From contig CP060227.1 in NCBI GenBank assembly GCA_023898525.1, positions 645,836-709,835 on the forward strand: a stretch of 64,000 nt of DNA. The letters run 5' to 3'. Positions 20,156 to 35,240 of this stretch are shown here, in pieces. Under the pieces are notes generated by a model. It ran no database searches and had not been told where the DNA came from. It saw only the letters and a list, made by a program, of their open reading frames with translations. The translations under genes and the position numbers were made by a program. The stretch comes from Candidatus Nomurabacteria bacterium. Lineage in GTDB: Bacteria; Patescibacteriota; Minisyncoccia; Phycocordibacterales; UBA918. How positions within the stretch are numbered: the stretch's first letter is position 1; each line of letters opens with the position of its first letter.

Positions 20156-20590
20156 TTAGTAAGTGTTACTTTTTTTATGGTGATTAGTTTTAAACATTTC
20201 CGCCAACTTTAAAACACTGGGAAATACATCAAGCTTCCTACAATCTTCCAAGTCAACAAAACGAAGTTCTGTACACTCGTCAGATGGAGTGAAGTTTAAA
20301 TCTTCTAATGTAGTTTCGTATAAAACATTAGCAAACCTAACACCATCACTCTCTCGCCTATCTGTAAGAAAGTAACTGGGTGTATCCGCTACAAAAGTAA
20401 CCTTAAGTCCTGTCTCTTCTTTAATCTCACGTTTTAGATCTTCTTGTGCTGACATACCCCAATCTAATCCTCCGCCAAGTAGTTCCCAGTTACCGTTTTC
20501 TTCTTTGGCAACAAGAAATTTGTTCTTGGTCTCATTTAGAACCAACGCCTTTACACTAACACGATAAAAACACTCGGGTATTGAACTCAT
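20156..20590 (-). CDS. NUDIX hydrolase
   Basis: Nudix box GGGLDWGMSAQEDLKREIKEETGLKV. Confidence 0.8.
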   Translation of the reverse strand: MSSIPECFYRVSVKALVLNETKNKFLVAKEENGNWELLGGGLDWGMSAQEDLKREIKEETGLKVTFVADTPSYFLTDRRESDGVRFANVLYETTLEDLNFTPSDECTELRFVDLEDCRKLDVFPSVLKLAEMFKTNHHKKSNTY

Positions 20591-20689: not shown

Positions 20690-21246
20690 ATTCAAAGAAT
20701 ATACCCCACCTTTCAAGGTGGGGCTATTTCGATACAATAGTAGGTAATGTCACCAATTATAAAAAAGTCACACAGTGCTAGTGAACTAGTCTACCACTTT
20801 GTTTTCCCTGTGAAATACAGAAGAAAGATATTTACCGAAGAAAACGAACCAACCCTGAAGGAGTTAGCTTTGGAATTAGAAAAACGTTACGAACTCCACT
20901 TTTTAGAGATAGGTATAGATAAAGATCATGTTCACTTTCTTATCCAAGCAATTCCAAGCTATGCTCCTTCGTATATTGCCAATACTGTTAAAGGAAACAT
21001 TACTAAACGTTTTTTCTTGGCTCATCCAGAGGTAAAGATCTTTCTCTGGGGTGGTAACCTTTGGACTGATGGCTATTACGTTAATACTGTCGGTAACGCT
21101 AATATGTCTATTGTTAAAAACTACGTACAGAATCAAGGTTTACCTGAATACAAACAATTACACCACCAAACTCTCTCGTTGTTTTAACTTAAAACTCTCT
21201 TCATGTGCCACTGATACCCCGTGTCTTCAGGCCGGGGTAGTTCATT
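20690..21246 (+). mobile_element. IS200/IS605-family insertion sequence, copy A (557 bp, identical to 27229-27785)
   Basis: 557-bp exact repeat with subterminal hairpins (ccccacctttcaaggtgggg at the left end; accccgtgtcttcaggccggggt at the right end) enclosing a Y1 transposase. Confidence 0.8.
20747..21187 (+). CDS. tnpA: IS200/IS605 family transposase TnpA (HUH Y1 transposase)
   Basis: 146 aa; HUH motif DHVHFLIQ and catalytic Tyr region TDGYYVNTVGN; 100% identical to 27286-27726. Confidence 0.85.
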   Translation: MSPIIKKSHSASELVYHFVFPVKYRRKIFTEENEPTLKELALELEKRYELHFLEIGIDKDHVHFLIQAIPSYAPSYIANTVKGNITKRFFLAHPEVKIFLWGGNLWTDGYYVNTVGNANMSIVKNYVQNQGLPEYKQLHHQTLSLF

Positions 21247-21299
21247 GACCCTATAAACCCCCAGCACAGCTGGGGTGTACATTTAAAGACAACGTCGTA

Positions 21300-21860
21300 T
21301 TACGATTAAGTCCTCCCTGACAAGGGAGGACTTAATCGCTTAATACATAATACGTATGTCATATCACAAACGTACCATTAGAACATTATCACACTGTTTC
21401 TACGATCTGATATATCACATCGTCTGGACACCTAAATACCGAGGTAAGGTACTGGATAAACCAAAAGTAAAACAAGAAGTCAGTCGCACCATAGGTCAAA
21501 TATGCAAATGGAAACAGTGGGAAATAATAGAGTTAAACATCCAAGATGATCATATCCATCTTATACTTTTAACTTCACCACGTTACTCCATATCGTATGT
21601 GATGCAAATAATCAAAGGAAAATCATCAGCTTGGATGAAGAAGAAAATCAAAAACACCGATAAACTCTATGATCGAGGTTCACTCTGGGCCAGAGGTTAT
21701 TTTGTATCAAGTATTGGTCTAGATGAACACCTGATACGTCGCTACGTACGTCATCAGTACGATAAGAATCAACTAGAACAACCATCGTTGTTTAATCTCT
21801 TTAAGTGATGCTGGCATCGCCAGCTATTATGAAGCCACTGGACCTTAGTCCGGTGGTTTG
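21300..21860 (+). mobile_element. second, divergent IS200/IS605-family element
   Basis: Left hairpin ttaagtcctccc-tgacaa-gggaggacttaa (21310-21339), right-end hairpins (gctggcatcgccagc, ccactggaccttagtccggtgg) flanking a distinct TnpA; boundaries approximate. Confidence 0.6.
21356..21808 (+). CDS. tnpA: IS200/IS605 family transposase TnpA (second, divergent paralog)
   Basis: YDLIYHIVWTPKYR..., HUH motif DDHIHLIL, Tyr region WARGYFVSSIG. Confidence 0.8.
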   Translation: MSYHKRTIRTLSHCFYDLIYHIVWTPKYRGKVLDKPKVKQEVSRTIGQICKWKQWEIIELNIQDDHIHLILLTSPRYSISYVMQIIKGKSSAWMKKKIKNTDKLYDRGSLWARGYFVSSIGLDEHLIRRYVRHQYDKNQLEQPSLFNLFK

Positions 21861-22580: not shown

Positions 22581-22735
22581 GCGGGTGAGAAGAATCGGTC
22601 ACCTTCGCATCAATATTTTGTTCGACCAAGGGTCTCCAAAATATTGTGCTACGCGACCCCGTCGCTTCATACCGAAGCAAAAAGTGTTTTGCTTCAGGCT
22701 TCGCATGAAGCTCTTTTCGATTCTTCTCACCCGCA
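22581..22735. repeat. tRNA-Gly(TCC) 3'-end-associated structured element, copy 1
   Basis: Termini are a direct 17-nt copy (gcgggtgagaagaatcg, identical to 30607-30623 inside tRNA-Gly-TCC) and an inverted copy (cgattcttctcacccgca) of the tRNA 3' end; ~120-bp core shared with 43461-43608, with compensatory changes in three stems. Confidence 0.7.
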
Positions 22736-22786
22736 CAAATGGCCGGCCGAAACGCGAAAGCGTTTCGGCCGGCCATTTGTGCGGGC
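22730..22786. other. perfect GC-rich inverted repeat (26-bp arms)
   Basis: cccgcacaaatggccggccgaaacgc-gaaag-gcgtttcggccggccatttgtgcggg, starting inside the inverted tRNA-end fragment; lies just 3' of the minus-strand CYTH gene. Confidence 0.6.
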
Positions 22787-22849
22787 TATTCAACGATGTT
22801 CGAACTTTTTTAATGAAAATGACCACCCCAAATTGAGGTGGCCAAGGAA

Positions 22850-23455
22850 TTATTGGAATGGATTTTCCATTCCAAAAGTAATTAAAGGTGTTCCGTTATT
22901 GATTACATCTTTTGAAACACCGTATTTATCTTCATAGAGCTGGTCTACCGCGCAAAACTTTGCATCAGACCACTGAAACCCCAGTTTTTCAGACACTGTT
23001 CTCACAACATCCTCTGAAACACCCTCAACCTCCACGAATGAATCGAGAAATGGCCATGTGTCTATTGTCACTTCGACACCATCAAGCAACCAAAGCTCCC
23101 TCAAGGTTTCTTGATAAGCCTTTCGTACACACCCAAGCGACTCGAGCAAGAGTTCAGCGTTTTCGAATGAGTCCACTTGTACACAGACCTCTTTTTGGTC
23201 ATGTATAGCATCACCTCCTACTGATTTAACACTGACTGTGATTTTATCTGACTCGTCTCGTACACGAGCCCATCCATTTACCACCTGCGAGGTTGCTGGA
23301 AGATTGAAAACACTTCTCTTCTGCAAGAATTCACTCTTTTGAAGTTTCGCTCCAGCAGATGAAAGTTTTTCTCTGATTATCTCTTTATCCACCTTAACAA
23401 AGGTAGCTTCGTATTCGATTTGCATATTTTCTCCAACTGGTTTCAAATTCTCCAC
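22850..23455 (-). CDS. CYTH-domain protein (triphosphate tunnel metalloenzyme / class IV adenylyl cyclase-like)
   Basis: N-terminal MQIEYEATFVKV (ExE-type strand) and C-terminal acidic strand VTIDTWPFLDSFVEVEGVSED typical of CYTH; paralogous to the next gene. Confidence 0.6.
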   Translation of the reverse strand: MENLKPVGENMQIEYEATFVKVDKEIIREKLSSAGAKLQKSEFLQKRSVFNLPATSQVVNGWARVRDESDKITVSVKSVGGDAIHDQKEVCVQVDSFENAELLLESLGCVRKAYQETLRELWLLDGVEVTIDTWPFLDSFVEVEGVSEDVVRTVSEKLGFQWSDAKFCAVDQLYEDKYGVSKDVINNGTPLITFGMENPFQ

Positions 23456-23497
23456 AAAATTTATATCACAAATATTGTGTTTGTAAATATCTAGAAA

Positions 23498-24049
23498 TTA
23501 TTCGCACTTATCGAATGTAAAGTAACGGAAGTTCGACACATCGTAACCATAATTCTCAATAATTTTCTTTGGGTCTATAAAAAGCGCCTTGTTCCAATCT
23601 AATCCTAACTTTTCAGCAATATCTTTGACGTGTTGCTCTGTATCTCCCTCAATTTCAAGCATTGGTGGTATTTTTGGCCAAGAATCAATATCTAATACCA
23701 CGCCATCAAACTTAATCTTTCTCCTCTTTTTCTGCTGAACTCTGAAAGGTATAAGTTCCATTTTTTCTAAAAAGGCTTTGAGCTGCTCTGGCTTATCTAC
23801 TGTAAATTCTATTTCTTCTGCACCATCAATTGTATCTGCTGTGATTTGCTTGTGGGTAAAAATGTGTTTTCCATCATAGCTTCTAATACGTGCGTATCTT
23901 CCAGTAGGACTCCAAGTCAAATCCTTATCATAAAAAATTGTCTCCTCGAGCAAATGTTCACCCAAATCAACACCGCCAAGTGAAACAGCTTTTGCAACAA
24001 TCTCCTCGATGTCTATCTCAATAAATCTTGCTTCTATTTCAGTTACCAT
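23498..24049 (-). CDS. CYTH-domain protein (triphosphate tunnel metalloenzyme / class IV adenylyl cyclase-like)
   Basis: MVTEIEARFIEIDIEEI (ExExK/R motif), RYARIRSYDGKHIFTHK, VVLDIDSWPKIPPMLEIEGDTEQ, the CYTH signature strands. Confidence 0.75.
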   Translation of the reverse strand: MVTEIEARFIEIDIEEIVAKAVSLGGVDLGEHLLEETIFYDKDLTWSPTGRYARIRSYDGKHIFTHKQITADTIDGAEEIEFTVDKPEQLKAFLEKMELIPFRVQQKKRRKIKFDGVVLDIDSWPKIPPMLEIEGDTEQHVKDIAEKLGLDWNKALFIDPKKIIENYGYDVSNFRYFTFDKCE

Positions 24050-24057
24050 ATATCTCT

Positions 24058-25098
24058 TTAATTATCTCTTCTAATAACCATCATTTGTTTTGTGTCTCTA
24101 ATACCAGCATTTGTCATACTGTCCATAAATTGACTGTACTCTTTGCGTTCAACAGATTCTGAAGACTCAATCACCAAAGATTTTTGTTCGTCTGAAAGCG
24201 AAACCACCATTTCTATCATTTCTCCAAGACTACGATAAGTATAAATTTCAGACCCCTCCCTTCTTTGCCAAGCGTCAAAAATAAAAGATTCCTGACCTAG
24301 TTCTTGAATAGCAGACTCAAGTCTTGACTGCTCGTACGCACCAGACTCGATTTCACCTAAAATATGTTTGAGTGATTCTCCATATTTTTGAAGTAACGCA
24401 TAATCTAGAAAAGAAACGACGTGTCTCTGCATTTCTCGATGGTAGTGGACTGAAGCAACAGCCTCTGCTCCCTCTCCAATATTCCACATTTCATCAGATA
24501 CCTGATTTACCTTAAGAAATTTCTCTCTAAAGCCACTATCAAAATTTTTTAAGAAGTCTATTAGCGCCGGATTATACTCACCAGATAACAACTCTTGTGA
24601 ATTATCAGGCAGTCCAACATCACGATAAAAAATACGACCACCTTCAGTTAAGTGTGCCGTAAGCTTATCAAAAACTTCTCTCAAGTAGTCACTAACACTT
24701 ACAGTTCCTTCAAGAAAATCTTTATTGTATGAGATAACTTCGTGAATAACCGCAGAAACATTTATCGCAGAAAATGACCTTTCCGCAAACGGAAGCGCTG
24801 TTAAATTGGCAGCTACTCCAAACACTTTATCTTCTGGCTTATGAACACGTCTAACTAATGGTTCTAGAATATCAATTGCATACACTTCTAAATCAGGGTC
24901 TTTTATATCACGTTTTATTTTTTCAACCCCTTGACCACCACCAACACCAACCTCCATAACCCGAACCGTTCCGTCAATCCTGGGTAGCGACTCAGAATCT
25001 AATGCTTTAATGAGCATTCCAACCTTTTCATCAATACCGCCTTTAAGCTGTTCAAGATATTCCGTGTCACCTTTTTCGTTTTTTGAGAAAGTTTCCAT
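24058..25098 (-). CDS. class I SAM-dependent methyltransferase with large uncharacterised C-terminal domain
   Basis: Rossmann motif I VMEVGVGGGQGVEKI, acidic motif II (VYAIDI); start set to METFSK (25098), which follows a terminator hairpin; about 200 aa of unassigned C-terminal sequence. Confidence 0.7.
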   Translation of the reverse strand: METFSKNEKGDTEYLEQLKGGIDEKVGMLIKALDSESLPRIDGTVRVMEVGVGGGQGVEKIKRDIKDPDLEVYAIDILEPLVRRVHKPEDKVFGVAANLTALPFAERSFSAINVSAVIHEVISYNKDFLEGTVSVSDYLREVFDKLTAHLTEGGRIFYRDVGLPDNSQELLSGEYNPALIDFLKNFDSGFREKFLKVNQVSDEMWNIGEGAEAVASVHYHREMQRHVVSFLDYALLQKYGESLKHILGEIESGAYEQSRLESAIQELGQESFIFDAWQRREGSEIYTYRSLGEMIEMVVSLSDEQKSLVIESSESVERKEYSQFMDSMTNAGIRDTKQMMVIRRDN

Positions 25099-25127
25099 AA
25101 AAAAGCAGAGGGTACTAGCCCCTCTGC
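25099..25127 (-). terminator. intrinsic terminator between tmk-like gene and methyltransferase (minus strand)
   Basis: gcagagggtactagcccctctgc hairpin followed by a T-run on the minus strand. Confidence 0.55.
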
Positions 25128-25148
25128 CCAATCATACTATGCTCATCA

Positions 25149-25694
25149 CTAGAATGCCATTTTAACGACCATTTCTGTACATTGCTCAACTGAAAAACTC
25201 TTAGTGTCGAGCGAAACAAATGGCTGCTTTTCAAGAACCAAATTCCTGAACAAAGCTTGTGTTAAATCAAACTGTTTATCCAGAACTCTTTTGTCACCAG
25301 CATCCATACCTCGAGCAACTATCCGCTGGATTTGTGTGTCGGCGTCAGCCACCAAAAGTACAGTCAGGTCTGGTTTAAGAATGGTTGCAAAATCATCGTC
25401 AGTGACCGTTGCACCCATTACCTGATGATAAGTGAGTGTGCTAATCCAGTAGCGGTCACATATCACGTGTTTACCAGAACGCACTAACTCGGAAACCTCT
25501 TCTGAAGCATCCTGAATTGCATTCCGATAGAAAGCATAGTGTTCATCAGCACTAGCATCTCTATGCAACTTTTCGCTGTATTTTTGATACTTCTTCGGCG
25601 GCGTAGCATATGCAACCCCGCCAACCTTATCAGCGATACGTGTAACTAGCGTGCTTTTTCCTGTGCCATCAGCACCTTCAAGTACAAGGAACAT
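25149..25694 (-). CDS. tmk: thymidylate kinase-like P-loop kinase
   Basis: MFLVLEGADGTGKSTLV P-loop, DRYWISTLTYHQ (Tmk DRY/NMP-binding-like), lid-like RIVARGMDAGDKR; 181 aa, shorter than typical Tmk. Confidence 0.7.
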   Translation of the reverse strand: MFLVLEGADGTGKSTLVTRIADKVGGVAYATPPKKYQKYSEKLHRDASADEHYAFYRNAIQDASEEVSELVRSGKHVICDRYWISTLTYHQVMGATVTDDDFATILKPDLTVLLVADADTQIQRIVARGMDAGDKRVLDKQFDLTQALFRNLVLEKQPFVSLDTKSFSVEQCTEMVVKMAF

Positions 25695-25748
25695 TTTTCA
25701 CCTCCAGATTTAAGGAAAATTTGCTAGCGTAAAAATAGTACAATAATT

Positions 25749-26300
25749 TTAATATGTCAATGTTTGTTTCTCAATCTCAGAAAGGACAGTTGAGACGGAG
25801 ATTTTAAAATTGTCACCAACCTGAACCCTATATAAAGGTAGTTCAGCATCTTCAAACACATCATCTACAAGTTGGTCGCGTTCCATACGGCTAGGCTTGT
25901 TGTGTGAACTTCCATCCAGCTCAATTGCAATTAGTGGTGTCATCTTGTCGTTACAAATCAAAAAATCAACGTGTTTAGGTAGTATCTGGTTACGCCTCTG
26001 ATAGTAACCATTTCCGTTCACTACATCCACTATGTCAGCTATACGCATTTTAGGAAAAATAAATAAATTGTCTGGTAGGCCAGATAGTAAAGATTGAAAT
26101 AGAGCCATTTCACTATCGTTCATGACCACTGCTTTCTTTTTGTATTCACGTTGCTTTTCAATAACCACTTCTTTAACCACCTTTTGTTTAAAGGGCGAAA
26201 TTAACTTAAAGAATAGCCACTTAATGAACAAAGCACAAAGCAGCAAGAAAATGACCAGAAAGACCAGATTGAAAAGTAGTTGTAGTAAGTTAGTTTCCAT
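25749..26300 (-). CDS. membrane-anchored DUF2726-domain protein (restriction-endonuclease-like fold)
   Basis: N-terminal TM, then ALFQSLLSGLPDNLFIFPKMRIADIV...VDFLICNDKMTPLIAIELDGSSHNKPSRMERDQLVDDVFEDAELPLYR, matching the DUF2726 pattern (VDFvlcD...PllaIElDdssH...R). Confidence 0.6.
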   Translation of the reverse strand: METNLLQLLFNLVFLVIFLLLCALFIKWLFFKLISPFKQKVVKEVVIEKQREYKKKAVVMNDSEMALFQSLLSGLPDNLFIFPKMRIADIVDVVNGNGYYQRRNQILPKHVDFLICNDKMTPLIAIELDGSSHNKPSRMERDQLVDDVFEDAELPLYRVQVGDNFKISVSTVLSEIEKQTLTY

Positions 26301-26355
26301 ACCTGCTAACTATAGTATGTAGAACCAGAGGTAGCAATTACATACGCTGTGTGTA

Positions 26356-26562
26356 ATGAAACCACGGTTACTAGTTAAGTTTGGAAATACAATCCGTAAA
26401 CTACGAGAGGAGCGTGGTTTGTCCCAAGAACGGTTAGGTGAGATAGCCAAAGTTCACCGCACCTATGTAGGAATGATAGAGCGTGCAGAAAAGAACATCA
26501 CTTTCACAAACATTGAAAAATTTGCAAAAGCCCTTAAAGTAGACATCAAAGACTTATTTTAA
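26356..26562 (+). CDS. XRE-family helix-turn-helix transcriptional regulator
   Basis: 68 aa; NTIRKLREERGLSQERLGEIAKVHRTYVGMIERAEKN, canonical HTH_XRE; divergent from the DUF2726 gene. Confidence 0.8.
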   Translation: MKPRLLVKFGNTIRKLREERGLSQERLGEIAKVHRTYVGMIERAEKNITFTNIEKFAKALKVDIKDLF

Positions 26563-26564
26563 GG

Positions 26565-27320
26565 ATGGAAACTGCAAATATACTAGACAGAAAACTTGCT
26601 GCTATAGAAACCAGTCAGACTGACACTGACTGTTTTAAGCATATCCACGGCTACATAAAATACATACTCGAAACACCAGAGCTGAAAGCAATTCTTGATA
26701 CTGAAGAAAAAGATTTCTACAGAAAAGTTAAGTTCACAGATGACAATATCAAACTAGAACAAGCTAATTATTATCAAGCGTATTTTGTTGCATCGTACGT
26801 CCGTATTTATCTCCCAATCGAACACTACTGGAACAGCAACGAACAAGATGAAAAACAAGACCCTGTTGCACTGCTTTTAATTTGGGGGCCAAAACACCCA
26901 CGAACTATGAAATGGGTGAACGGTCATGATTTCTTTTCTAAAAGAGAACAGCTCAAACAACTTAAAAGCTATTGGCAGTGGTTTGATGGTCAGCGTGATT
27001 TTTACATCAGTGAAATCAAAAACCTACACCTTGCCTTGATTACAGAATTATCTAAACAGAAAGCATTGCCAACTGTGGCCGATGAAAAGCCAGATGTTTT
27101 TCAGATGAACTTAGAAACAGGCGACTTTAATCTTGGTGGTGTTACTGGAACGTTGAACATAACAACCCAAGAATTTAGAGTGATGGCAAAATTATATACA
27201 GCACCCAATCATCGTATGCCATATCTTGATTCAAAGAATATACCCCACCTTTCAAGGTGGGGCTATTTCGATACAATAGTAGGTAATGTCACCAATTATA
27301 AAAAAGTCACACAGTGCTAG
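26565..27320 (+). CDS. hypothetical protein; C-terminal ~25 aa encoded by the IS200 left end
   Basis: 251-aa ORF immediately after the XRE gene; its last residues (...NIPHLSRWGYFDTIVGNVTNYKKVTQC) come from IS200 copy B, suggesting IS insertion into the gene's 3' end. Confidence 0.5.
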   Translation: METANILDRKLAAIETSQTDTDCFKHIHGYIKYILETPELKAILDTEEKDFYRKVKFTDDNIKLEQANYYQAYFVASYVRIYLPIEHYWNSNEQDEKQDPVALLLIWGPKHPRTMKWVNGHDFFSKREQLKQLKSYWQWFDGQRDFYISEIKNLHLALITELSKQKALPTVADEKPDVFQMNLETGDFNLGGVTGTLNITTQEFRVMAKLYTAPNHRMPYLDSKNIPHLSRWGYFDTIVGNVTNYKKVTQC

Positions 27321-27785
27321 TGAACTAGTCTACCACTTTGTTTTCCCTGTGAAATACAGAAGAAAGATATTTACCGAAGAAAACGAACCAACCCTGAAGG
27401 AGTTAGCTTTGGAATTAGAAAAACGTTACGAACTCCACTTTTTAGAGATAGGTATAGATAAAGATCATGTTCACTTTCTTATCCAAGCAATTCCAAGCTA
27501 TGCTCCTTCGTATATTGCCAATACTGTTAAAGGAAACATTACTAAACGTTTTTTCTTGGCTCATCCAGAGGTAAAGATCTTTCTCTGGGGTGGTAACCTT
27601 TGGACTGATGGCTATTACGTTAATACTGTCGGTAACGCTAATATGTCTATTGTTAAAAACTACGTACAGAATCAAGGTTTACCTGAATACAAACAATTAC
27701 ACCACCAAACTCTCTCGTTGTTTTAACTTAAAACTCTCTTCATGTGCCACTGATACCCCGTGTCTTCAGGCCGGGGTAGTTCATT
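27229..27785 (+). mobile_element. IS200/IS605-family insertion sequence, copy B (identical to 20690-21246)
   Basis: 557-bp exact duplicate including both terminal hairpins. Confidence 0.8.
27286..27726 (+). CDS. tnpA: IS200/IS605 family transposase TnpA
   Basis: Identical to 20747-21187. Confidence 0.85.
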   Translation: MSPIIKKSHSASELVYHFVFPVKYRRKIFTEENEPTLKELALELEKRYELHFLEIGIDKDHVHFLIQAIPSYAPSYIANTVKGNITKRFFLAHPEVKIFLWGGNLWTDGYYVNTVGNANMSIVKNYVQNQGLPEYKQLHHQTLSLF

Positions 27786-28149
27786 GGTTAGATGCCTGAA
27801 AACAAATGCCACAGAGGCTTCAAAAACAGATAAAAGAATGCTTGGTACAGTGATTCGTAACATTAAAAGACAGCTTGGTATTCTTCCAGAAGATAAACGA
27901 GTGAACGAGGACATCTTCCATAATGAAATGAAGTTTGGCTATCGGCTTGAAATAAAAGGTTAATTTCTTTTCCATAACATTTCCATATCTTTTCCGTACC
28001 CTTTCGAGGGTCTTTTTTATATCGTGCTGGCATGAGTTTCAGCCAAGGATTAGTAGAACAGTACCAGCGATACATGGAACGTCGTTGTGGGGTTTGTATT
28101 ACTCACGAACAGGCGCAGCTACACCTTGCTTCCTTAGCACGACTCTATA

Positions 28150-28262
28150 CAGCAATTTCTTTTTCGCAAGACTCTGGCGGTGGTCGCGTGCGGCTTTCGC
28201 CTCACCCTCACCCCGAGGCGGGGTGAGGCGAAAGGCCGCGTCGCGGCCTTTCTGCGCAGCAG
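28150..28262. promoter_or_regulatory. GC-rich nested inverted repeats upstream of Rep: candidate rolling-circle origin
   Basis: cctcaccctcaccccgaggcggggtgagg and ggccgcgtcgcggcc hairpins in an otherwise AT-rich locus, 40-150 nt upstream of the HUH Rep start. Confidence 0.35.
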
Positions 28263-28303
28263 AAAGTGACTTGATTTTATATACACATAGTTCGACATCA
28301 TTT

Positions 28304-29146
28304 ATGAGTAGACCACGCACCAGTCATTACAAAATTGTTATTTCAGGACACATTGTTGAGGCAATGCAGTATGCCAAAGCAGTTGGCTACAGTCTTGAGT
28401 CAAGTAAAAAGCAGGCACCGTATCGCAAACGACGAGCTTTAGCTGAGCAAGAGATAACGGCTAGTTCACTCAGTCGGACAAAGAACAGGCTAATTCGATT
28501 GGTGAACGCTAATTGTTTTATGTGGACTGATATAGACGGACAGATAATTAAACCGCAGTTTCTGACCTACACTATCCACGAAAATATTAAGACAGTTGAA
28601 CAAGCTAACCCGCTTTTCACCAACTACATCAAACGACTGAATTACCATACCTACGGCACTAAAGCATCGGTAATTAAATACGTGGTTGTGCCTGAGTTTC
28701 AAAAACGTGGGGCAGTTCACTATCATGCAGTGTTCTTTAACCTGCCTATGATTAACTCGAGGAGAGAATATAAAACGGGTGAGTTTGCAAAAGTTTGGGA
28801 ACATGGATATATCAAAAAACGAAACATAAGCAAAGTACCAAATGTTGGTTTGTATATGACTAAGTATATGACCAAAGATGCCATGGATAGACGACTAGTT
28901 GGCAGAAAGAAATATTTTTCTAGTCGAGGCTTGTTAAAACCAGAGGTAATTACCTATGAACATTTAGCGGGGGATATGATGGACTACTTGTCAGAACTAA
29001 AACCAATGCACGCTTATATCACGTCACCTAATGATGAACGTCCGTTTGTTGAGAACCCTACTTTTTGCGCGACATACAATCTATCCACTGAACAGTTGCA
29101 TGATTTACGAAATTTCTATACCCTCGATAGTGCTAACTTAAGGTAG
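28304..29146 (+). CDS. HUH-superfamily rolling-circle replication initiator (Rep)
   Basis: HUH motif GAVHYHAVFFN and Tyr motif GLYMTKYMTKD (YxxKY). Start set to MSRPRT (28304); the upstream extension of the ORF spans the GC palindromes. Confidence 0.7.
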   Translation: MSRPRTSHYKIVISGHIVEAMQYAKAVGYSLESSKKQAPYRKRRALAEQEITASSLSRTKNRLIRLVNANCFMWTDIDGQIIKPQFLTYTIHENIKTVEQANPLFTNYIKRLNYHTYGTKASVIKYVVVPEFQKRGAVHYHAVFFNLPMINSRREYKTGEFAKVWEHGYIKKRNISKVPNVGLYMTKYMTKDAMDRRLVGRKKYFSSRGLLKPEVITYEHLAGDMMDYLSELKPMHAYITSPNDERPFVENPTFCATYNLSTEQLHDLRNFYTLDSANLR

Positions 29147-29149
29147 CGT

Positions 29150-30614
29150 ATGAAATACATCCTTTATTGTCGAAAATCACAAGAGTCAGAGGATAGACAA
29201 GTGCAGTCACTTGAGGCGCAAGAGCGTGAACTGAATGACTTTGCTAAACGTCATAGTTTGGACATTGTTGGTGTGTATCATGAGAGTCGGTCTGCTAAGA
29301 CGGTCGGTCGTCCAGTATTCAATGAGGTGATTAAGAAAATACAATCAGGCAAGGCTGATGGTTTGCTTTGTTGGAAACTAGACCGCTTAGCGCGTAATTT
29401 CATAGATGGTGGGCTTGTCATTGACCTATTGCAGCACTCAGTCATTAAAAGTATTCAAACCCCTGCTAAAGAATATCTACCAACTGACCCTGTATATCTG
29501 ATGGTGTTTGAGCTTGGCGTGGCTAATCAATTTTCTCGCGACCTGTCTGAAAACGTAAAGCGTGGCAATCGTGAGAAAATTCGCAATGGTGGCTGGCCTG
29601 GATTAGCACCTTTTGGTTATCTAAACGATAAGGCAGAGAAAACGCTTTATGTTGACCCCGACCGTGGGCCATACGTACAGCAGATGTATGAACTCTACGC
29701 CACTGGTTTGTATAGTCTTAAAGAGCTGTCCAATGAGCTTTATGAGCGAGGATTACGCACCAAGCAAGGCAACAAAGTCCATTGCGGTACCATCAGACAT
29801 ATTTTGCGTAACCCAATGTATCACGGCGTGATTCGCTACCGTGGCAGCTATTACCCAGCTAACTTTACTAGCATTACCACCAAAGACCTTGTACGACAAA
29901 AGCATGAACGTCATGGACGGTAGTGCAAAACCGCGGAAGCAAAAGCACCTCTTTCCCTTAACTGGATTGTTTACCTGTGGTGTCTGCGGATATGCCGTGA
30001 CCGCAGAGAAACAAAAAGGTTACACGTACTACCACTGCACTAACGGCAAGGGAATTTGTGACCAAAAGAAACTATTCATTCGTGAGGAAAAACTTGATGA
30101 GCAACTGGCACCAATCTTTGATGATGTTGCATTTGACGAGGAACTAATTGAAATGATGTATCAGGCGGCACTTGAGCAAATGGAACATGACGACCAGTTC
30201 AACACCGCAGCTATTGAGAAACTAGAAAAGGAATTGGCCGCAATCAAACTAAAAGATAATCGCTTACTTGATGCTTTCTTAGCTGAAAATATTGAAAAGG
30301 ATATTTACGATGCAAAACAGGCAGAAATAAAGCATGAACGGATTGCACTAGAGAAACAATTAGCTGGAATGCGCCAAAATCACCAAAACCCCTACGCAAC
30401 TATCGAACGGGCAAAAGAGTTGTTTTTGTTTAGTAATAGAGCCAAATCTGAGTATGCGAATGCCGTTCCTGAGCGAAAACAAGAAATCGCTTATGAGTTA
30501 CTATCGAACGCTTTACTGAAAGACCGAAAAATGGCTCAACCACAACTTAAAAGCCCTTACGATATGCTCGCAAGGACTCCTAAGAATGCTGATTTTGCAA
30601 TTATGTGCGGGTGA
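29150..30614 (+). pseudogene. large serine recombinase with apparent frameshift near 29860-29900; 3' end overlaps tRNA-Gly
   Basis: 29150-29923 encodes the resolvase catalytic domain (YCRKSQESEDRQVQSLEAQ...LDRLARN) and recombinase domain; the zinc-ribbon/coiled-coil part (HLFPLTGLFTCGVCGY..., LFDKV-like TLYDKSMNVMDGSAKPRK) is in a different frame (29841-30614). The TGA stop at 30612-30614 lies inside the tRNA-Gly 3' end. Confidence 0.6.
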
Positions 30615-30676
30615 GAAGAATCGAACTCCCGACTACTGCTTGGAAGGCAGTCGTTTTACCACTAAACTACACCCGC
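30606..30676 (-). tRNA. tRNA-Gly (anticodon TCC)
   Basis: Reverse complement GCGGGTG-TA-GTTT-AGTGGTA-AAAC-G-ACTGC-CTTCCAA-GCAGT-AGTC-GGGAG-TTCGATT-CTTCT-CACCCGC-A folds as a 71-nt cloverleaf with U33 and anticodon UCC; no encoded CCA. Confidence 0.8.
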
Positions 30677-30765
30677 AAATATACATTTCATTTTTTCCTC
30701 TTTTGCGTGAGAAACTATAGCATTTTTATCCTAAAATTTCCACAAAACCTGATATACTTGTCTCT

Positions 30766-31851
30766 ATGCATTATCTTGTCGACCTGGTTACGGCTGTACT
30801 TGTAGGATACTTGGCGTTTACTAATTTTTTGGCAGATAAACTAGAGGTTGTCTTTTTGGCTTCTGAGGAGATTACTATCCCGATAGAATATGGAGGAGAA
30901 ATCACCCTTCCCTCTTTACCAGCTCCGATTGAAGAGGCTGGCTTGTCCGATCTTCTTTTAAAGAGTAAAGAATACCAGCAAGCGGCAACGATCGGCTCAA
31001 GTGTTAATCGTACTATTACCGACCCAGCAAAAGCTCTGGTTAATATTTATTGTACATTTACCAGCTCTAGCACTATACGTACCACTACCGGTACCGGATT
31101 TTTTGTTCACAGTGATGGTGTCATTATGACCAATGCGCATGTAGCTCAATATTTATTGCTTGATGACACAGATTTATTTGGTGAAGCAGAATGTTTAATC
31201 CGCACTGGTAACCCTGCTAAAGCTGAGTATGTCGCCGAGTTGCTTTATATATCCCCGAGCTGGATACAAAAGAACGCCAGCACCATCGATTCCTCGTCTC
31301 CGAATGGTACAGGAGAGCGTGATTATGCTCTTTTGTATGTTACGAAGTCGATCACAAATACACCTTTACCGGCAAGGTTCCCAGCCTTGGCGGTTAATAT
31401 TGATTTACTGCCGGTCAGTTATCGGGGGCATAAAGTTCAGGCGGGTGGTTATCCGGCCACAGATCTATTAAATGGTGATACGAATAGCCCGCTTATACCT
31501 AAAATAGCTTCAACAACCGTTTCAGAGCTTTACACCTTCGGATCTAACTATGCTGATGTCTTTTCGGTTCGCGGTAGCGTGGTCGGGGCGGCGGGTTCCT
31601 CTGGTGGTCCAATCGTAGACGTAGACGGACGGGTTGTGGGTATGATTGTAACGCGTGGTGATGATAGTATTGATGGAGCCGGCAGCCTCAGGGCTATTAC
31701 CCTTTCACATATTCACCGAACCATAATGGACGAGACTGGATTTTCATTGGCCAGAAATCTTGGCGGTAATCTAGAACAGCGTTCGTTGATTTTTTCACAG
31801 ACATTAGCTCCTTTTTTGGTCAGAATACTTTCTGAGGAAATTAGTCACTAA
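30766..31851 (+). CDS. trypsin-like (S1 family) serine protease, membrane-anchored
   Basis: His active-site region TGTGFFVHSDGVIMTNAHVAQ and Ser active-site GSSGGPIVDVDGRVVGMIV; N-terminal hydrophobic anchor. Confidence 0.7.
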   Translation: MHYLVDLVTAVLVGYLAFTNFLADKLEVVFLASEEITIPIEYGGEITLPSLPAPIEEAGLSDLLLKSKEYQQAATIGSSVNRTITDPAKALVNIYCTFTSSSTIRTTTGTGFFVHSDGVIMTNAHVAQYLLLDDTDLFGEAECLIRTGNPAKAEYVAELLYISPSWIQKNASTIDSSSPNGTGERDYALLYVTKSITNTPLPARFPALAVNIDLLPVSYRGHKVQAGGYPATDLLNGDTNSPLIPKIASTTVSELYTFGSNYADVFSVRGSVVGAAGSSGGPIVDVDGRVVGMIVTRGDDSIDGAGSLRAITLSHIHRTIMDETGFSLARNLGGNLEQRSLIFSQTLAPFLVRILSEEISH

Positions 31852-31964
31852 TTCACAGTTTTTATTTGATGTTACATTTAAGTGACGTTAACATACATGT
31901 CTACATAACTTTTGTTATAAGTTATGTGTGTGTTCTTTTAAACAATTGATCATTGTTTTAAGGA

Positions 31965-31995
31965 AACCGCGAGTATTTTAGTACTCGCGGTTTTC
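31965..31995. terminator. bidirectional terminator between protease and glutamine amidotransferase genes
   Basis: aaaccgcgagta-ttttag-tactcgcggtttt. Confidence 0.6.
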
Positions 31996-32778
31996 CTATT
32001 GTGTTGTGCCTACATGCTTAAATTCGTCCGATTTCACTCTGTTTGCCACCATTTTACTAAAATTAAACAGTATCTTATTTGACTGTATGTCGTCTTTAAA
32101 TATTTCTTCTACAGCCGCACCGTCTGGTAAATACCCAGGAGATTCTTTTATTCTTCCCATCATATCGCCATAGGTTAGTTCTGGGTGAAATTGTACGGTG
32201 TAAATATTTTTCTTGTAGCGTAGTGCTGAAACTTCACACTTATCACCCCCGCTCATTAATAATACTGCGTTATCTGGAATCCGATCCAGTATATCTTTGT
32301 GCGCATAATGAGCATCAAAGGTATCAGGTAAATCAGTAAATAAAAAATACTCATTCTTATCAACTAAAAGCTTAACTTGGTGTGTACATGTCTTTTTCTG
32401 TTGTTCTGAGTAGCACACTTGGGCCCCGGCAAAAGCGCCTAGCAACTGATGTCCATAACAGATACCAAGGGTTGGGATATCATTATCAAAAATATATTGA
32501 AACAGTGGTCGTAATTGACCTAAAAGTTCGTAAGAAATACGTCTTTTTTCATCGTCTTCACAGCGATTACCATCAAAATCAAATTCTCCGGAACCACCCA
32601 AAATAACCCCATCATAGCCAGACATTATGACTTCCGGAAAATTCCAGTCGATAGTCTTATCTAGAGCGTCAATAAAGTCTACGTCTGTATTCCCTTTTAT
32701 TTCACGCCGTATACAAGTCTGCTCCTGCTCAATTGAAGCTTGGTTTTTTCTGAATTGTATACTAAGGATTTTTTTCAT
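31996..32778 (-). CDS. class I glutamine amidotransferase-like protein
   Basis: GATase1 catalytic Cys motif DIPTLGICYGHQLL and His region VQFHPE. Confidence 0.7.
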   Translation of the reverse strand: MKKILSIQFRKNQASIEQEQTCIRREIKGNTDVDFIDALDKTIDWNFPEVIMSGYDGVILGGSGEFDFDGNRCEDDEKRRISYELLGQLRPLFQYIFDNDIPTLGICYGHQLLGAFAGAQVCYSEQQKKTCTHQVKLLVDKNEYFLFTDLPDTFDAHYAHKDILDRIPDNAVLLMSGGDKCEVSALRYKKNIYTVQFHPELTYGDMMGRIKESPGYLPDGAAVEEIFKDDIQSNKILFNFSKMVANRVKSDEFKHVGTTQ

Positions 32779-32845
32779 GATAAAAATAAATTATAAACAA
32801 AAGTTGTGGTTGCGTAAAATCAAGGACTCTAAGTGACTGTTAAAA

Positions 32846-32880
32846 CAAAAGAACCGACCTAAAGGTCGGTTCTTTTGTTT
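32846..32880 (-). terminator. intrinsic terminator after MscS-family gene
   Basis: aaaagaaccgacc-taaa-ggtcggttctttt. Confidence 0.6.
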
Positions 32881-33055
32881 AAAGTATTCTAGCTACCTAC
32901 ACGCCAACCGACCAGCTTGTGTAGCTGAAAATCCAAAAGAGCACAATAGCAATAACTTGCTTTACTTCTGTATTTGGAACGGTTGTGGCAATAGCTTGCA
33001 TAATTTCAAGTATAATCAGTTTTAGTTTACTGTCAATTTTTGCTCAAAATAAAAC

Positions 33056-34165
33056 TTAGGTAATAGACTTTGTCAAAATAGTCTGGGTTGGGTAAGCAAA
33101 TTCTATCCCTAGCTTTTGGAAGCGCTCCATCAAAGAGAAGTTGAATATTTGTTGCACATTAAGGTAATCGTTGTGGTCTGGTGATTCAATGTAATAAACA
33201 ATCTCAAAGGTTAAAGAAAAATCGCCAAAGGTAGTGAAGTGGACTCTGTCTAATCTACCACCTTCCAGATTATTAAATATCTCTATCACTTCGGTTTCAA
33301 TTTGCTTTAATTTCCCGAGCGGTGTTTCATAAAGTACACCAATTTTGGTCACTATGCGGCGCTCCTGCATTTTCTTGTAGTTATTTACTCGGGCGGAAGT
33401 CAGCTCCATGTTGGAAATAACTAGTTCCTCTCCTTGTAGAGTCTTTATTCTGGTTGATTTGACGCCAATCTTTTGAATGGTACCAGAGTCGTTTCCTACT
33501 ACCACGAAGTCCCCAATCCGGAACGGTCGGTCCAAGTAAATAGAGAATGAAGCAAAAAGGTCAGATAAAATTCCCTGCAAGGCCAAAGCGACGGCCAAAC
33601 CGCCTATACCTAAGCCGGCCAAGAGTGAGGTAACCTCAATTCCTAGGTTAGAAAGTATAAATAGTATACCTAGTACCCATAGTATGATCCGTGCTGCCAG
33701 ATCCACCATATGAGAAGCGGTGGCTGATCCCGGATCTACTTCCCCATCACCGTCATTGTCTCTCTCTAGAAAGCGTGAAGAAAAGTAGCTCACAAATTTA
33801 AGAGCAATTTCTATCAACTGCCAGACGACTGCAAATAGAAAGACCGCGGTAATTGTTTTATCAAACCAATTTGGTACAGAAACCATTTGTAAGGCGAAGA
33901 ATAGCGAGGCGATAGTATAGACCCAGACTCTGATTCCCTGCACGGCAGCGATAACCACATCATCGATATCGGTGCCGGTCTTGCTTGAAAGTTTATGCAA
34001 ATGCTTTATCACTACATTGCGTATTACCCAAAAAGCAAGGGTGAGAACTATAAAAACAATAAAAGCCGCCAACCAAGAACCAACTTGTAGCTCACCTAAT
34101 ACAGGTAGAGTGTAGGTGGCATTGGACAGGGAGGCTAAAAAATTATTGGTATCAAACGGGTTCAT
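33056..34165 (-). CDS. mechanosensitive ion channel (MscS family) protein
   Basis: Multiple N-terminal TMs, then LGIGGLAVALALQGILSDLFASFSIYLDRPFRIGDFVVVGNDSGTIQKIGVKSTRIKT, the MscS TM3/beta-domain signature. Confidence 0.85.
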   Translation of the reverse strand: MNPFDTNNFLASLSNATYTLPVLGELQVGSWLAAFIVFIVLTLAFWVIRNVVIKHLHKLSSKTGTDIDDVVIAAVQGIRVWVYTIASLFFALQMVSVPNWFDKTITAVFLFAVVWQLIEIALKFVSYFSSRFLERDNDGDGEVDPGSATASHMVDLAARIILWVLGILFILSNLGIEVTSLLAGLGIGGLAVALALQGILSDLFASFSIYLDRPFRIGDFVVVGNDSGTIQKIGVKSTRIKTLQGEELVISNMELTSARVNNYKKMQERRIVTKIGVLYETPLGKLKQIETEVIEIFNNLEGGRLDRVHFTTFGDFSLTFEIVYYIESPDHNDYLNVQQIFNFSLMERFQKLGIEFAYPTQTILTKSIT

Positions 34166-34570: not shown

Positions 34571-34680
34571 GTGATTACGGACTGATGAAAAATTTTTGTA
34601 AGAAAATTTTTCATCAGTCAACAATTCCTCTCTACCAGAAACAAAACCGGCCCTTTTTGGGCCGGTTTTGTTTCTGGTTG
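34571..34680. repeat. palindrome + terminator-like hairpin module, copy A
   Basis: ttacg-gactgatgaaaaattttt-gtaa-gaaaatttttcatcagtc-aacaa (34579-34618), then ccagaaacaaaaccggccc-ttttt-gggccggttttgtttctgg (34634-34678). Confidence 0.7.
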
Positions 34681-35130: not shown

Positions 35131-35240
35131 TGATTACGGACTGATGAAAAATTTTCTTAAGAAAATTTTTCATCAGTCAATAAATTGTGAAGTAGAACAA
35201 AAATCCGGCCAGTGGCCGGATTTTTGTTCTACTTCGCATT
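35131..35240. repeat. palindrome + terminator-like hairpin module, copy B
   Basis: ttacg-gactgatgaaaaattttcttaagaaaatttttcatcagtc-aataa (35139-35178), then gaagtagaacaaaaatccggcc-agtg-gccggatttttgttctacttc (35190-35237). Confidence 0.7.

Follow-up and report, generated by a model that had tools for sequence, protein, structure and literature searches.

In staphylococcal SCC elements, large serine recombinases insert cargo elements into the 3′ terminus of a single conserved gene, and regeneration of the site gives rise to composite arrays, recombinase-less units included; replication genes are carried as well. Like the element analysed here, the integrative mobilizable elements and CIMEs of Firmicutes (Guedon et al., 2017; PMC5704250) are small, combine a site-specific integrase, sometimes of the serine type, with a protein of the rolling-circle-initiator family, and use the end of a conserved gene as the site, where incoming units and decayed, recombinase-less, att-flanked units accrete in tandem. 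The filamentous Ralstonia phages phiRSM1 and phiRSM3 carry a serine recombinase and a repressor and integrate at 13 bases of a tRNA 3′ end (PMC4471427), and the pSAM2-type elements of actinomycetes are integrated at tRNA genes, excise, replicate by the rolling-circle mode and are under repressor control (PMC2440964).

The DNA analysed here is a window of 64,000 nucleotides from the tiny genome of a Candidatus Nomurabacteria bacterium (contig CP060227.1, positions 645,836 to 709,835), and all coordinates refer to this window. Positions 22783-30608 very probably represent a small integrative rolling-circle replicon of Patescibacteria, in an integrated copy that has since decayed, and the features of the element and its flanks are as follows.

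22581-22734, minus strand: structured tRNA-linked module in the flank outside the element; its 17-nt terminal stem is the tRNA-Gly(TCC) 3′ end
22730-22785, unstranded: perfect palindrome with 26-nt arms in the flank, the tRNA terminator hairpin (repeat search)
22778-22805, plus strand: left junction attL, TGTGCGGG (22778-22785) followed by the element arm CTATTCAACGATGTTCGAAC (22786-22805)
22850-23455, minus strand: CYTH-like protein 2 (201 aa), cargo; Pfam CYTH 21.7 bits against a cut-off of 23.2
23498-24049, minus strand: CYTH protein 1 (183 aa), cargo; Pfam CYTH 35.7 bits
24058-25095, minus strand: SAM-dependent methyltransferase with an extra C-terminal region, cargo; Methyltransf_11 28 bits
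25149-25694, minus strand: thymidylate-kinase-like (Tmk-like) P-loop kinase (181 aa), cargo; Thymidylate_kin 72 bits
25749-26300, minus strand: DUF2726 protein, membrane segment at the N-terminus, nuclease-like fold; DUF2726 81 bits
26356-26562, plus strand: XRE/Cro-type repressor (68 aa), core; HTH_3 56 bits
26565-27228, plus strand: N-terminal 221 codons of a 280-aa protein, core, interrupted by IS200
27229-27786, plus strand: IS200 insertion; tnpA at 27286-27726, Y1_Tnp 120 bits
27787-27963, plus strand: C-terminal remainder of the 280-aa protein, an OmpR-type winged helix, cut off by the IS; the frame resumes and aligns with the C-termini of homologues
28032-28226, plus strand: small ORF (64 aa), core, conserved, with coding conservation in the alignment
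28194-28266, plus strand: three GC-rich hairpins in a row, candidate single-strand origin and/or terminator (repeat search)
28266-28297, plus strand: invariant AT-rich block GTGACTTG/ATTTTATATACACATAGTTCGACA (slash, predicted nick), candidate double-strand origin
28304-29146, plus strand: HUH rolling-circle Rep (280 aa), core; PF23343, HYH and YMTKYMTK motifs
29150-30614, plus strand: large serine recombinase (LSR) gene, core; Resolvase, Recombinase and Zn_ribbon_recom domains, +1 frameshift near 29887
30585-30625, plus strand: right junction attR, consisting of the LSR 3′ end (element arm), TGTGC and the tRNA 3′ end
30605-30676, minus strand: tRNA-Gly(TCC), the target, intact after insertion; ARAGORN and Rfam (72.6 bits)

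The element proper (7,826 bp) sits at the extreme 3′ end of tRNA-Gly(TCC). Its left and right junctions have TGTGCGGG in common, and in-silico removal of 22783-30608 restores a perfect palindrome with 40-nt arms, composed of the module end, the terminator hairpin and the tRNA 3′ end; at the left junction, the right arm of the 26-nt-arm palindrome serves as the host-side (B) arm. Parcubacteria OLB19 (L008) shares synteny with the window on both sides and lacks the element, the order there being module and palindrome, tRNA-Gly(TCC) and Trypsin_2, with 176 nt between as against 7.8 kb in the window, and its palindrome at 767-825 is homologous to the one at 22730-22785. A second contig, L013, is the equivalent empty site for the insertions in L003 and L005; both empty sites have homologous flanks and come from other species (66-89% nucleotide identity), not from the same population. 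The shared TGTGCGGG, the restored palindrome and the empty site in L008 show that a real mobile element is inserted at the last bases of tRNA-Gly(TCC). A preliminary description had already read the block as an insertion between the tRNA and the module, and this part stands, whereas its bounds of 22792-30676 do not, the tRNA being the target. The anomaly in GC content to which it had looked as a further sign is not seen, base composition not being clearly anomalous. The perfect palindrome, the structured module and the counterpart of the module at the Gly(GCC) locus, all reported there, are real: the module is strongly structured (z about -13), with the better fold given by the tRNA strand, its paralogue lies at 43463-43610, and homologues adjoin tRNA-Gly, tRNA-Val and tRNA-Met in six Patescibacteria genomes.

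The crossover at the left junction probably falls within TGTGC. The adjoining element arm CTATTCAACGATGTTCGAAC occurs once in the window, occupies the distal end of the L001, L003, L004 and L006 elements, and is kept across independent insertions with differing outer flanks. GTGC or TGTGC is the sole sequence common to all 36 junctions compared (the junction table holds 21 distinct junctions), and such a short shared sequence would fit the short crossover of a serine recombinase. At the right junction, the stop codon TGA of the recombinase gene (30612-30614) and the Gly codon before it are tRNA sequence, as had been noticed before, and the LSR proteins of 487-493 aa in L001, L003, L005, L006 and L120 likewise terminate 10 or 28 nt inside tRNA-Gly(TCC). 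In the window, one surplus base near 29887, seen on comparison with L001, L003 and L006, splits the recombinase into two frames (29150-29923 and 29841-30614), which align with the L001 protein at 74-81% identity. The catalytic domain (PF00239, 74 bits, residues 4-149) has the YxRxS serine motif in MKYILYCRKSQ, and the C-terminal domains score 46.6 bits (PF07508) and 41.9 bits (PF13408). Judged against the intact homologues, which have all three domains, the two frames are one broken gene, and the LSR is a pseudogene unless the frameshift is an assembly error in this metagenome-assembled genome.

Both the recombinase and the Rep of the preliminary description are supported by profile searches, the Rep matching PF23343 with 67 bits (cut-off 27.8) and PHROG 3419, 'rolling circle DNA replication initiation', at 3e-25. 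Its true start is 28304, not 28085, and it has 464 homologues; H139 and H141 in the HUH motif GAVHYHAVFF are invariant in 24 homologues, and so are Y184, K187, Y188 and K191 in the YxxKYxxK motif YMTKYMTK. The GC-rich hairpins upstream are real, their structure being kept through compensatory changes among four elements, yet they had been taken for the double-strand origin, and this assignment is better transferred to the AT-rich block that lies 3′ of the GC palindromes and just 5′ of rep. Four elements with Reps 76-81% identical to that of the window agree at 31 of the 32 positions of this block, and the motif ACTTG/AT is similar to the origin of phiX174, CAACTTG/ATATTAATAACACTATAG (annotated at 4306); the nick is predicted between G28273 and A28274, an assignment based on likeness over about 26 nt to one phage origin. 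The AT-rich block is the better nick-site candidate, and the GC palindromes are more plausibly a single-strand origin or terminator.

The core opens with the XRE gene, conserved as a 68-75-aa homologue in all relatives. The ORF that follows (26565-27320) reads into IS200, and its C-terminus had already been recognised as IS-derived; with the IS removed, the frame resumes at 27787-27963 and gives about 280 aa, as in the relatives, where the intact proteins among 13 homologues measure 277-297 aa. The model of this protein (pLDDT 82) comprises a helical N-domain and a winged helix, and its C-terminal fold matches the DNA-binding domains of OmpR, CovR and ToxR (target TM 0.58-0.75); the element-specific protein is predicted to be an OmpR-type winged-helix DNA binder. 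The interrupting IS200 is a secondary event; it is 558 bp long and 100% identical to the copy at 20690-21247, and in agreement with the IS200/IS605 group it has a Y1 transposase, subterminal hairpins near both ends and identical copies, with no inverted terminal repeats. The 64-aa ORF had no family match in PADLOC, PHROGs and NCBIfam searches, and ORFs of 62-76 aa occupy the matching position in L001, L003 and L006; it is a candidate directionality factor or copy-control protein.

The same core order (XRE repressor, 280-aa winged-helix protein, 64-aa ORF, two-tyrosine HUH Rep and LSR) is found undamaged in six or more further Patescibacteria contigs, and for five of these the position at tRNA-Gly(TCC) was confirmed; L001-L007 and L120 have this order with an intact recombinase, and a distant branch adjoins tRNA-Lys(CTT). 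The cargo lies on the strand opposite the core and varies among relatives, L003 and L004 having an identical Rep protein and different cargo. Recombinase-less cassettes beside tRNA-Gly are also bounded by the CTATTCAACGATGTTCGAAC arm and are sometimes arrayed; what bounds each of them is a hybrid junction (hairpin, TGTGC, CTATTCAACGATGTTCGAAC) and not an attC site. By analogy, the cassettes may be read as tandem accretion as in SCC elements or CIMEs, and the arrays are possibly integron-like, while an integron itself was rejected, since the recombinase is of the serine type and not an IntI tyrosine recombinase, the boundaries are not attC, and only the array architecture is similar. No description of the family was found in the literature searched, and this family of small self-replicating, self-integrating elements with swappable cassettes is apparently undescribed. 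The gene combination had been called unrecognised; it is not one fixed family but a conserved five-gene core with exchangeable cargo.

Based on these comparisons, we propose that in intact members the recombinase would join a circular attP (LSR 3′ end, TGTGC, CTATTCAACGATGTTCGAAC) to attB (terminator hairpin, TGTGC, tRNA 3′ end), and the tRNA would be left intact because the crossover lies inside TGTGC. The XRE protein would silence the rightward operon. On the excised circle, the Rep would nick the invariant ACTTG/AT motif directly 5′ of its own gene, the predicted nick substrate carrying ACTTGATTTTATATACAC, and the circle would be replicated by a phiX174-type two-tyrosine rolling-circle mechanism, with the GC hairpins beside the nick motif as putative single-strand origin. 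The cargo lies between the element arm and the XRE gene and is swapped as cassettes. Searches of IMG/VR and the JGI metagenome collection yielded neither an attP junction nor an excised circle.

Unlike SCC, the element targets a tRNA instead of rlmH, has an HUH Rep as replication module and is five to ten times smaller, and its LSR, a distant relative at most, scored only 50-89 bits against the CcrA, CcrB and CcrC models, with cut-offs of 700-900 (CcrA, 89 versus 700), so an SCC element was rejected. It shares with pSAM2 a plasmid-like, tRNA-integrated, rolling-circle and repressor logic, but pSAM2 has a tyrosine integrase with Xis, RepSA and an FtsK-like transfer gene, none of which the element has; a pSAM2-type element was rejected on its serine integrase, the sub-threshold match of the Rep to RepSA (Pfam, 28 versus 34 bits; NCBIfam, 17 versus 700) and the absence of an FtsK-like gene. 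The phiRSM phages have a homologous rolling-circle Rep (27% identity to the RS603/RSM-type phage records), but a recombinase of the small resolvase/invertase type and a full inovirus coat and assembly gene set, whereas the element family has a large serine recombinase and lacks virion genes. The closest annotated Reps (38-40% identity over ~75% of the length, E 1e-44) belong to 1.5-2 kb Firmicutes plasmids, and such cryptic plasmids of Bacillales and Clostridia (e.g., NC_004938, 1,786 bp) are not integrated and have no integrase, repressor or cargo. In contrast to Firmicutes integrative mobilizable elements, the family has no visible link to conjugation, its Rep belongs to PF23343 and not to Rep_trans or Rep_2, its hosts are Patescibacteria, it targets the last tRNA bases through a serine recombinase, and its cassettes often consist of one gene of 0.5-2 kb.

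An integrative mobilizable element of the Firmicutes kind, whose Rep-like protein would act mainly as a relaxase at an oriT and whose circle would be moved by the apparatus of another element, is nevertheless conceivable at a low probability, as most such elements in streptococci encode relaxases related to rolling-circle initiators and some encode serine integrases (PMC5704250). A distant relative (L122) also adjoins T4SS_pilin genes, but coupling protein and transfer genes are absent in and near all elements examined, no gene for relaxase-independent transfer, packaging or conjugation was found in the element, and the nearest annotated kin of the Rep replicate cryptic plasmids carrying nothing else. 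To our knowledge, conjugation systems are rare in Patescibacteria, which we also count against this explanation. Still less probable is a prophage of a very small ssDNA phage of the inovirus or plectrovirus type, or a satellite borrowing the capsid of a helper. In its favour, replication proteins from inoviruses, plectroviruses and certain microviruses share 26-33% identity with the Rep, the phiRSM phages offer a precedent for integration by a serine recombinase at the 3′ end of a tRNA, contigs of some 4-9 kb in IMG/VR encode Reps of up to 40% identity, and size, repressor and integrase are like those described for marine satellites; against this, PHROGs and Pfam searches yielded no capsid protein and neither a major coat protein nor a Zot/pI-type assembly ATPase, on which ground an inovirus or plectrovirus prophage was rejected, and none of the nine non-IS proteins matched a structural or morphogenesis family of PHROGs. 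Moreover, the only sizeable uncharacterised core protein is the OmpR-type DNA binder, with no virion-like fold, IMG/VR lacks a close relative, and a five-gene core is too small for virion genes.

Within the preferred reading of an integrative rolling-circle replicon, the state of the window copy has to be weighed as well. Were the frameshift an assembly or sequencing error and the IS200 located in a dispensable gene, the copy would be fully active, and this is unlikely, though less so than the two foregoing explanations: the lesion is of a single base in a metagenome-assembled genome, and Rep, XRE gene and the two junction arms show no damage, but the extra base lies outside a long homopolymer (AAAGACC versus AAAGA-C), and two independent lesions within a 4-kb core, the +1 frameshift in the LSR and the IS200 in the winged-helix gene, resemble decay. 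Most close relatives have kept the 280-aa gene; none was called in L003, L004 and L005, and the case for an essential role is therefore weaker. The window copy is damaged and probably unable to move alone, and, with no second LSR or Rep found in the window, mobility would most likely require another copy to supply the lost functions.

As for the cargo, the Tmk-like kinase, the methyltransferase and the first CYTH protein are above the Pfam thresholds, as are the XRE and DUF2726 proteins, in line with the earlier assignments; of the two tandem CYTH proteins, the second (22850-23455) falls just below its threshold, with NCBIfam cyaB (3.6e-8) and an identity of 30% with the first in its favour. 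The DUF2726 nuclease-like gene, the other part of the cargo, is divergent from the XRE gene, and in most relatives (L001, L004, L006 and L120) its slot has a small GIY-YIG gene. The methyltransferase (345 aa, counted from the Met start) has only 9 homologues among 5.8 billion proteins, with a Tmk-like gene directly upstream in every context examined and a CYTH gene after it wherever the contig goes on (L014, L015, L018 and L019). The 3-kb Tmk-methyltransferase-CYTH-CYTH block, which is 84% identical to a block elsewhere, is one portable, exchangeable cargo and a candidate for a role in defence or nucleotide modification; its kinase matches the PADLOC defence candidate PDC-M51B (1.3e-35). The first CYTH protein is 94% identical to its homologue in L014, and in L097 a gene 63% identical to that of CYTH-like protein 2 stands alone as a cassette flanked by two junction arms.

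An element at window positions 22783-30608 is inserted at the 3′ end of tRNA-Gly(TCC), and its core consists of an XRE regulator, a 280-aa winged-helix protein, a 64-aa ORF, an HUH rolling-circle initiator (Rep) and a large serine recombinase (LSR). Going down in coordinate from the tRNA, the features of the window copy are:

30605-30676, minus strand: tRNA-Gly(TCC), the target
29841-30614 and 29150-29923: two overlapping LSR reading frames, jointly carrying Resolvase, Recombinase and Zn_ribbon_recom domains
true start at 28304: HUH Rep (Pfam PF23343, 67 bits against a cut-off of 27.8)
between Rep and the IS200-interrupted ORF: small ORF of 64 aa
the interrupted ORF: 251 aa, reading into the IS200 copy
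27229-27786: IS200 copy of 558 bp, identical to 20690-21247
last of the core: XRE repressor
opposite strand: genes for a DUF2726 protein, a thymidylate-kinase-like (Tmk-like) kinase, a methyltransferase and two CYTH proteins

Profile searches upheld all the domain assignments of the preliminary description; it had also named GC skew as a check, and no convincing anomaly of composition or GC skew was found. By alignment to intact homologues, the recombinase gene contains exactly one surplus base near 29887, a frameshift that might be an assembly error, and without the IS200 copy the interrupted ORF runs on into 27787-27963 and reaches about 280 aa. No second LSR or Rep able to act in trans is present within the window. 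Two different IS200-type transposase genes adjoin just left of the tRNA-Gly hotspot (20690-21247 and 21356-21808), the former being either the source of the copy within the element or its twin.

The sequence TGTGCGGG is present twice, at 22778-22785 and 30604-30611, the 22-nt stretch at 22716-22737 is the exact reverse complement of 30604-30625, and a perfect palindrome with 26-nt arms spans 22730-22785; because of these three relations, excising 22783-30608 (7,826 bp) in silico restores a perfect palindrome with 40-nt arms, composed of the end of the neighboring structured module (22581-22734), the terminator hairpin and the tRNA 3′ end. Immediately inside the left junction lies CTATTCAACGATGTTCGAAC, which occurs only once in the window. 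The predicted attP reads ...GCAATTATGTGC/GGGCTATTCAACGATG... and the predicted attB ...GGCCATTTGTGC/GGGTGAGAAGAATCG.... The structured module, used as a query against one genome per species, retrieved six Patescibacteria loci, and the earlier proposal that the block was inserted between the tRNA and this module was borne out by L008 (Parcubacteria OLB19), which has both flanks without the element. L008 aligns to window 22592-22785 (module and palindrome) at 89% and to 30604-31868 (tRNA and Trypsin_2), and the gap between the two aligned blocks is 176 nt in L008 versus 7.8 kb in the window. At a further empty-site locus, L013, a hairpin and TGTGC directly precede tRNA-Gly(TCC); its tRNA-side flank matches the element-bearing contigs L005 (99% over 92 nt) and L003 (blocks of 73-82%), its distal side aligns only in protein-level blocks further out, and its hairpin arms, in our reading, resemble those of the insertions. 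Both empty sites belong to species other than that of the window.

GTGC is common to every junction tabulated, namely 21 distinct distal and 15 tRNA-proximal ones, while the three bases that follow are variable at distal junctions (GGG, ACG, ACC, AGG, AAG, AGA, GGT) and GGG at the tRNA, with a single GAG. Judged from this pattern, the predicted crossover is inside TGTGC, corresponding to tRNA positions 71-75, with the tRNA preserved. Additionally, host-side arms such as ...CATGTTGGCTGTGC and ...CATTGTATCTGTGC adjoin the tRNA in one set of contigs and the element arm in another, the signature of site-specific integration. A search of viral_contigs and metagenome_contigs for the attP-specific pattern of an excised circle (LSR 3′ end, 8 nt, GTGC, 3 nt, element arm) found no match. 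The 17-nt direct repeat GCGGGTGAGAAGAATCG (22581 and 30607), as the att repeat of the element, would put the module inside an 8.0-kb island; it was rejected because the conserved element arm begins at 22786, because module and palindrome are present in L008, which lacks the element, and because like repeats flank modules at other tRNAs with no nearby recombinase.

Since the attachment site and the stop codon of the recombinase overlap, the LSR gene in its integrated state ends in ...MCG before the stop, and the circular form (30560-30614 joined to 22783-22840) would instead encode the end ...MCGLFNDVRTFLMKMTTPN. The LFNDVRT tail, encoded by the conserved arm and therefore conserved with it, is kept in four of the five elements checked, and for L120, a related contig with a variant arm, the predicted circular-form end is ...MCGLRDDV. 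Such a change of tail might tie recombinase stability or directionality to the integration state, for which integration-dependent phage switches are a known parallel.

Rep has 464 homologues, and in the contexts of six of them the core of the window recurs: an XRE regulator of 68-75 aa, the roughly 280-aa protein, a small ORF of 62-76 aa, Rep and an intact LSR of 487-493 aa. The 280-aa gene was not called in L003-L005, nor the small ORF in L004, L005, L007 and L120, nor either the XRE or the 280-aa gene in L121. The recombinase gene terminates 10 or 28 nt within tRNA-Gly(TCC) in L001, L003, L005, L006 and L120, and the L122/L123 branch (Rep identity 46%) adjoins tRNA-Lys(CTT) and has a related arm. 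The arm CT(A/G)TTCAACGATGTTCGAAC marks the distal end of L001, L003, L004 and L006, where the outer flanks are unrelated. These related elements are 4.4-5.3 kb long, and the cargo between arm and XRE gene varies, even between L003 and L004 with identical Rep protein. Among the genes of L120 from the arm-like site nearest to the XRE gene (at about 4460) up to that gene are one of Shedu type (SduA_C), one for an HD protein and a GIY-YIG gene, the putative cargo boundary being set by this arm-like site of variant sequence TTGCGGGACGATGTTTGAAC. Trypsin_2 and MscS genes lie beyond the tRNA in the window (30766-34165), L006, L008 and L120; in L003 (5174-7811) they are on the cargo side of the element in inverted order, an arrangement that points to an inversion bounded on one side by the attachment site.

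Both the HUH motif (HYH) and YMTKYMTK are invariant among 24 Rep homologues. The nearest annotated Reps, at 38-40% identity (E 1e-44), belong to cryptic plasmids of 1.5-2 kb from Bacillales and Clostridia, and those of inoviruses, plectroviruses and some microviruses are 26-33% identical; no close relative was found in IMG/VR, where the profile search gave relatives at 40% identity or less, and the Rep sequence matched none of the solved structures. When the non-coding DNA 5′ of rep was aligned across four elements, three GC hairpins kept their structure through compensatory changes, as with GGCCGCG/CGCGGCC in the window and GGTCT/AGACC in L001, and the block after them, GTGACTTGATTTTATATACACATAGTTCGACA (window 28266-28297), was invariant at 31 of 32 positions. 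This block matches the phiX174 origin, CAACTTG/ATATTAATAACACTATAGACCAC (annotated at 4306), in register at ACTTGAT, TTA, ACAC and ATAG, about 18 of 26 positions by manual count. On this likeness we predict that Rep nicks between G28273 and A28274, within the predicted cleavage motif GTGACTTGATTTTATATACACATAG, cut after ACTTG. The GC palindromes, which the preliminary description had likened to a double-strand origin, were downgraded as the nick site in favor of the invariant motif on their 3′ side, and the hairpins are read as a putative single-strand origin and/or terminator.

The 280-aa protein has only 13 homologues, one of which carries PF00486, and in its model (pLDDT 82) the N-terminal domain is helical and the C-terminal one is a winged helix of OmpR/PhoB type, with target TM of 0.58-0.75 against the DNA-binding domains of CovR, OmpR and ToxR. 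No virion or assembly family was matched by the nine non-IS proteins of the element scanned, and therefore the element is plasmid-like and not a prophage. The 64-aa ORF or the 280-aa protein may encode or be a directionality factor, and the transfer route, like this factor, is putative.

As to the cargo, a search of 5.8 billion proteins gave only nine homologues of the methyltransferase, and in all contexts examined a Tmk-like gene is immediately upstream of the methyltransferase gene; a CYTH gene follows wherever the contig extends (L014, L015, L018, L019). L014 9339-12305 is 84% identical in nucleotides to window 22796-25761, its CYTH proteins are 92-94% identical to those of the window, and its copy has no adjoining LSR or Rep. 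In our reading, the corresponding end of this chromosomal copy still has a remnant of the element arm, in decayed form (CAATGTTTGAAC); on the opposite side, upstream of the block at 8990-9080, there appears to be a piece of tRNA-like 3′ sequence (GGGTTCGAGTCCCTGATCGGCAGCCA), which hints that the L014 block too sits in an old integration site. A CYTH2 homologue in L097 (63% identical) forms a single-gene unit between two junction arms, and another in L008 (57% identical) adjoins the module. The Tmk-like kinase matches the unvalidated PADLOC candidate PDC-M51B (1.3e-35) and also VakA, and PADLOC gave nothing meaningful for the methyltransferase, both CYTH proteins and DUF2726. Because the match is limited to the kinase, no named defense system can be claimed, and the data can only suggest a defense-related or nucleotide-modifying role for the block.

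A metagenome scan with the 17-nt element arm returned 99 loci, of which about 15 were genuine in that hairpin and TGTGC precede the arm; none of these has a Rep or LSR in the fetched DNA, and the tRNA, when within the fetched stretch, is tRNA-Gly(TCC), 0.6-2 kb away. L091 contains five arms spaced 460-690 bp, four in complete junctions (hairpin, TGTGC, arm) and the fifth without TGTGC, and in each unit inspected a terminator-like hairpin and TGTGC come after a single small ORF; from its translation, one unit may be a NUDIX gene resembling window 20156-20590. L097 has two junctions, and L120 has two complete variant-arm junctions and a third partial arm-like site, with its recombinase element adjoining the tRNA. 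Beside tRNA-Gly(TCC), these arrays, whose units contain no recombinase, extend over 2611-5000 in L091 (reverse orientation) and 2440-4480 in L120, and one is also found in L097.

We tentatively propose, as a possibility that we hold to be on the unlikely side, that a serine-recombinase cassette system anchored at tRNA-Gly(TCC) operates in Patescibacteria, with the recombinase-Rep elements as its autonomous drivers. Short units of 0.5-3 kb that lack a recombinase, each made up of an element arm, a single gene or a few, a terminator hairpin and TGTGC, would circularize, insert at the tRNA end and remake a usable site every time; repeated insertion would thus yield integron-like arrays, and cargo, often defense-like, would be swapped between chromosomes and replicons. 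This was suggested by the Tmk-methyltransferase-CYTH-CYTH block shared at 84% identity with a block elsewhere, by CYTH2 as a single-gene cassette in L097, by the junction arrays of L091 and L120, and by the same host-side arms joining either tRNA or element arm. Ordinary accretion followed by deletion could give the same cassette pattern. SCC composite islands are a known parallel for such arrays, and these, or alternatively tandem accretion with decayed, cis-mobilizable units, are the best fit among known phenomena. The latter has been described previously (PMC5704250).

The element shares its logic with integrative mobilizable elements, with elements of the pSAM2 type and, most of all, with the phiRSM filamentous phages, whose Rep is homologous and which use a serine recombinase and target the 3′ end of a tRNA (PMC4471427). 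Each known system compared differs in at least one defining feature, and a full-text literature search found no description of the element family or of serine-recombinase cassette arrays. A new principle would follow only if the cassette mechanism is confirmed, in which case arrays made by a serine recombinase would be an integron-like system on a different chemistry; otherwise the interest lies in Patescibacteria biology and tool building. To our knowledge, very little is known of mobile elements in Patescibacteria (Candidate Phyla Radiation), and we know of almost no genetic tools for them at present. The family shows genomes of about 1 Mb trading small defense-like cassettes at a single tRNA hotspot, and a 4-5 kb element with serine integrase, attachment arms, rolling-circle Rep and candidate origin is close to a ready integrative or shuttle vector, as intact recombinases such as that of L001 (8253-9716) come with natural attP/attB pairs.

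The non-coding structured module, about 150 nt long, occurs 50-200 bp downstream of tRNA genes Gly-TCC, Gly-GCC, Val-TAC and Met-CAT in several Patescibacteria classes, with copies at window 22581-22734, 43463-43610 and 43243-43400, in L008 (620-770), L009, L010, L012 (two copies) and L013. Its far end is a 17-20 nt direct copy of the neighboring tRNA 3′ end, from the T-loop to just beyond the discriminator and in many cases with a terminator hairpin of its own, and its near end is an inverted partial copy; therefore, the terminal stem co-varies with the adjoining tRNA. The module folds better on the tRNA strand (5 versus 18 mismatched pair cells), and Rfam gave only spurious sub-threshold microRNA-like hairpin matches for module and palindrome. 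It may have arisen as a miniature element that integrated at the T-loop; alternatively, it may be an RNA co-transcribed with the tRNA, whose 3′ end it would mimic or pair with. A second structured-module type, at L008 830-913 between palindrome and tRNA-Gly, is 80% identical to window 51677-51761, about 100 bp from tRNA-Arg(TCG). An exact duplicate of the initial 37 nt of tRNA-Pro(TGG) lies 140 bp upstream of the gene (41266-41302 and 41406-41442), possibly the scar of another integration, and a 53-nt hairpin-containing repeat is found at 34572-34624 and 35131-35183, 559 bp apart with 94% identity.
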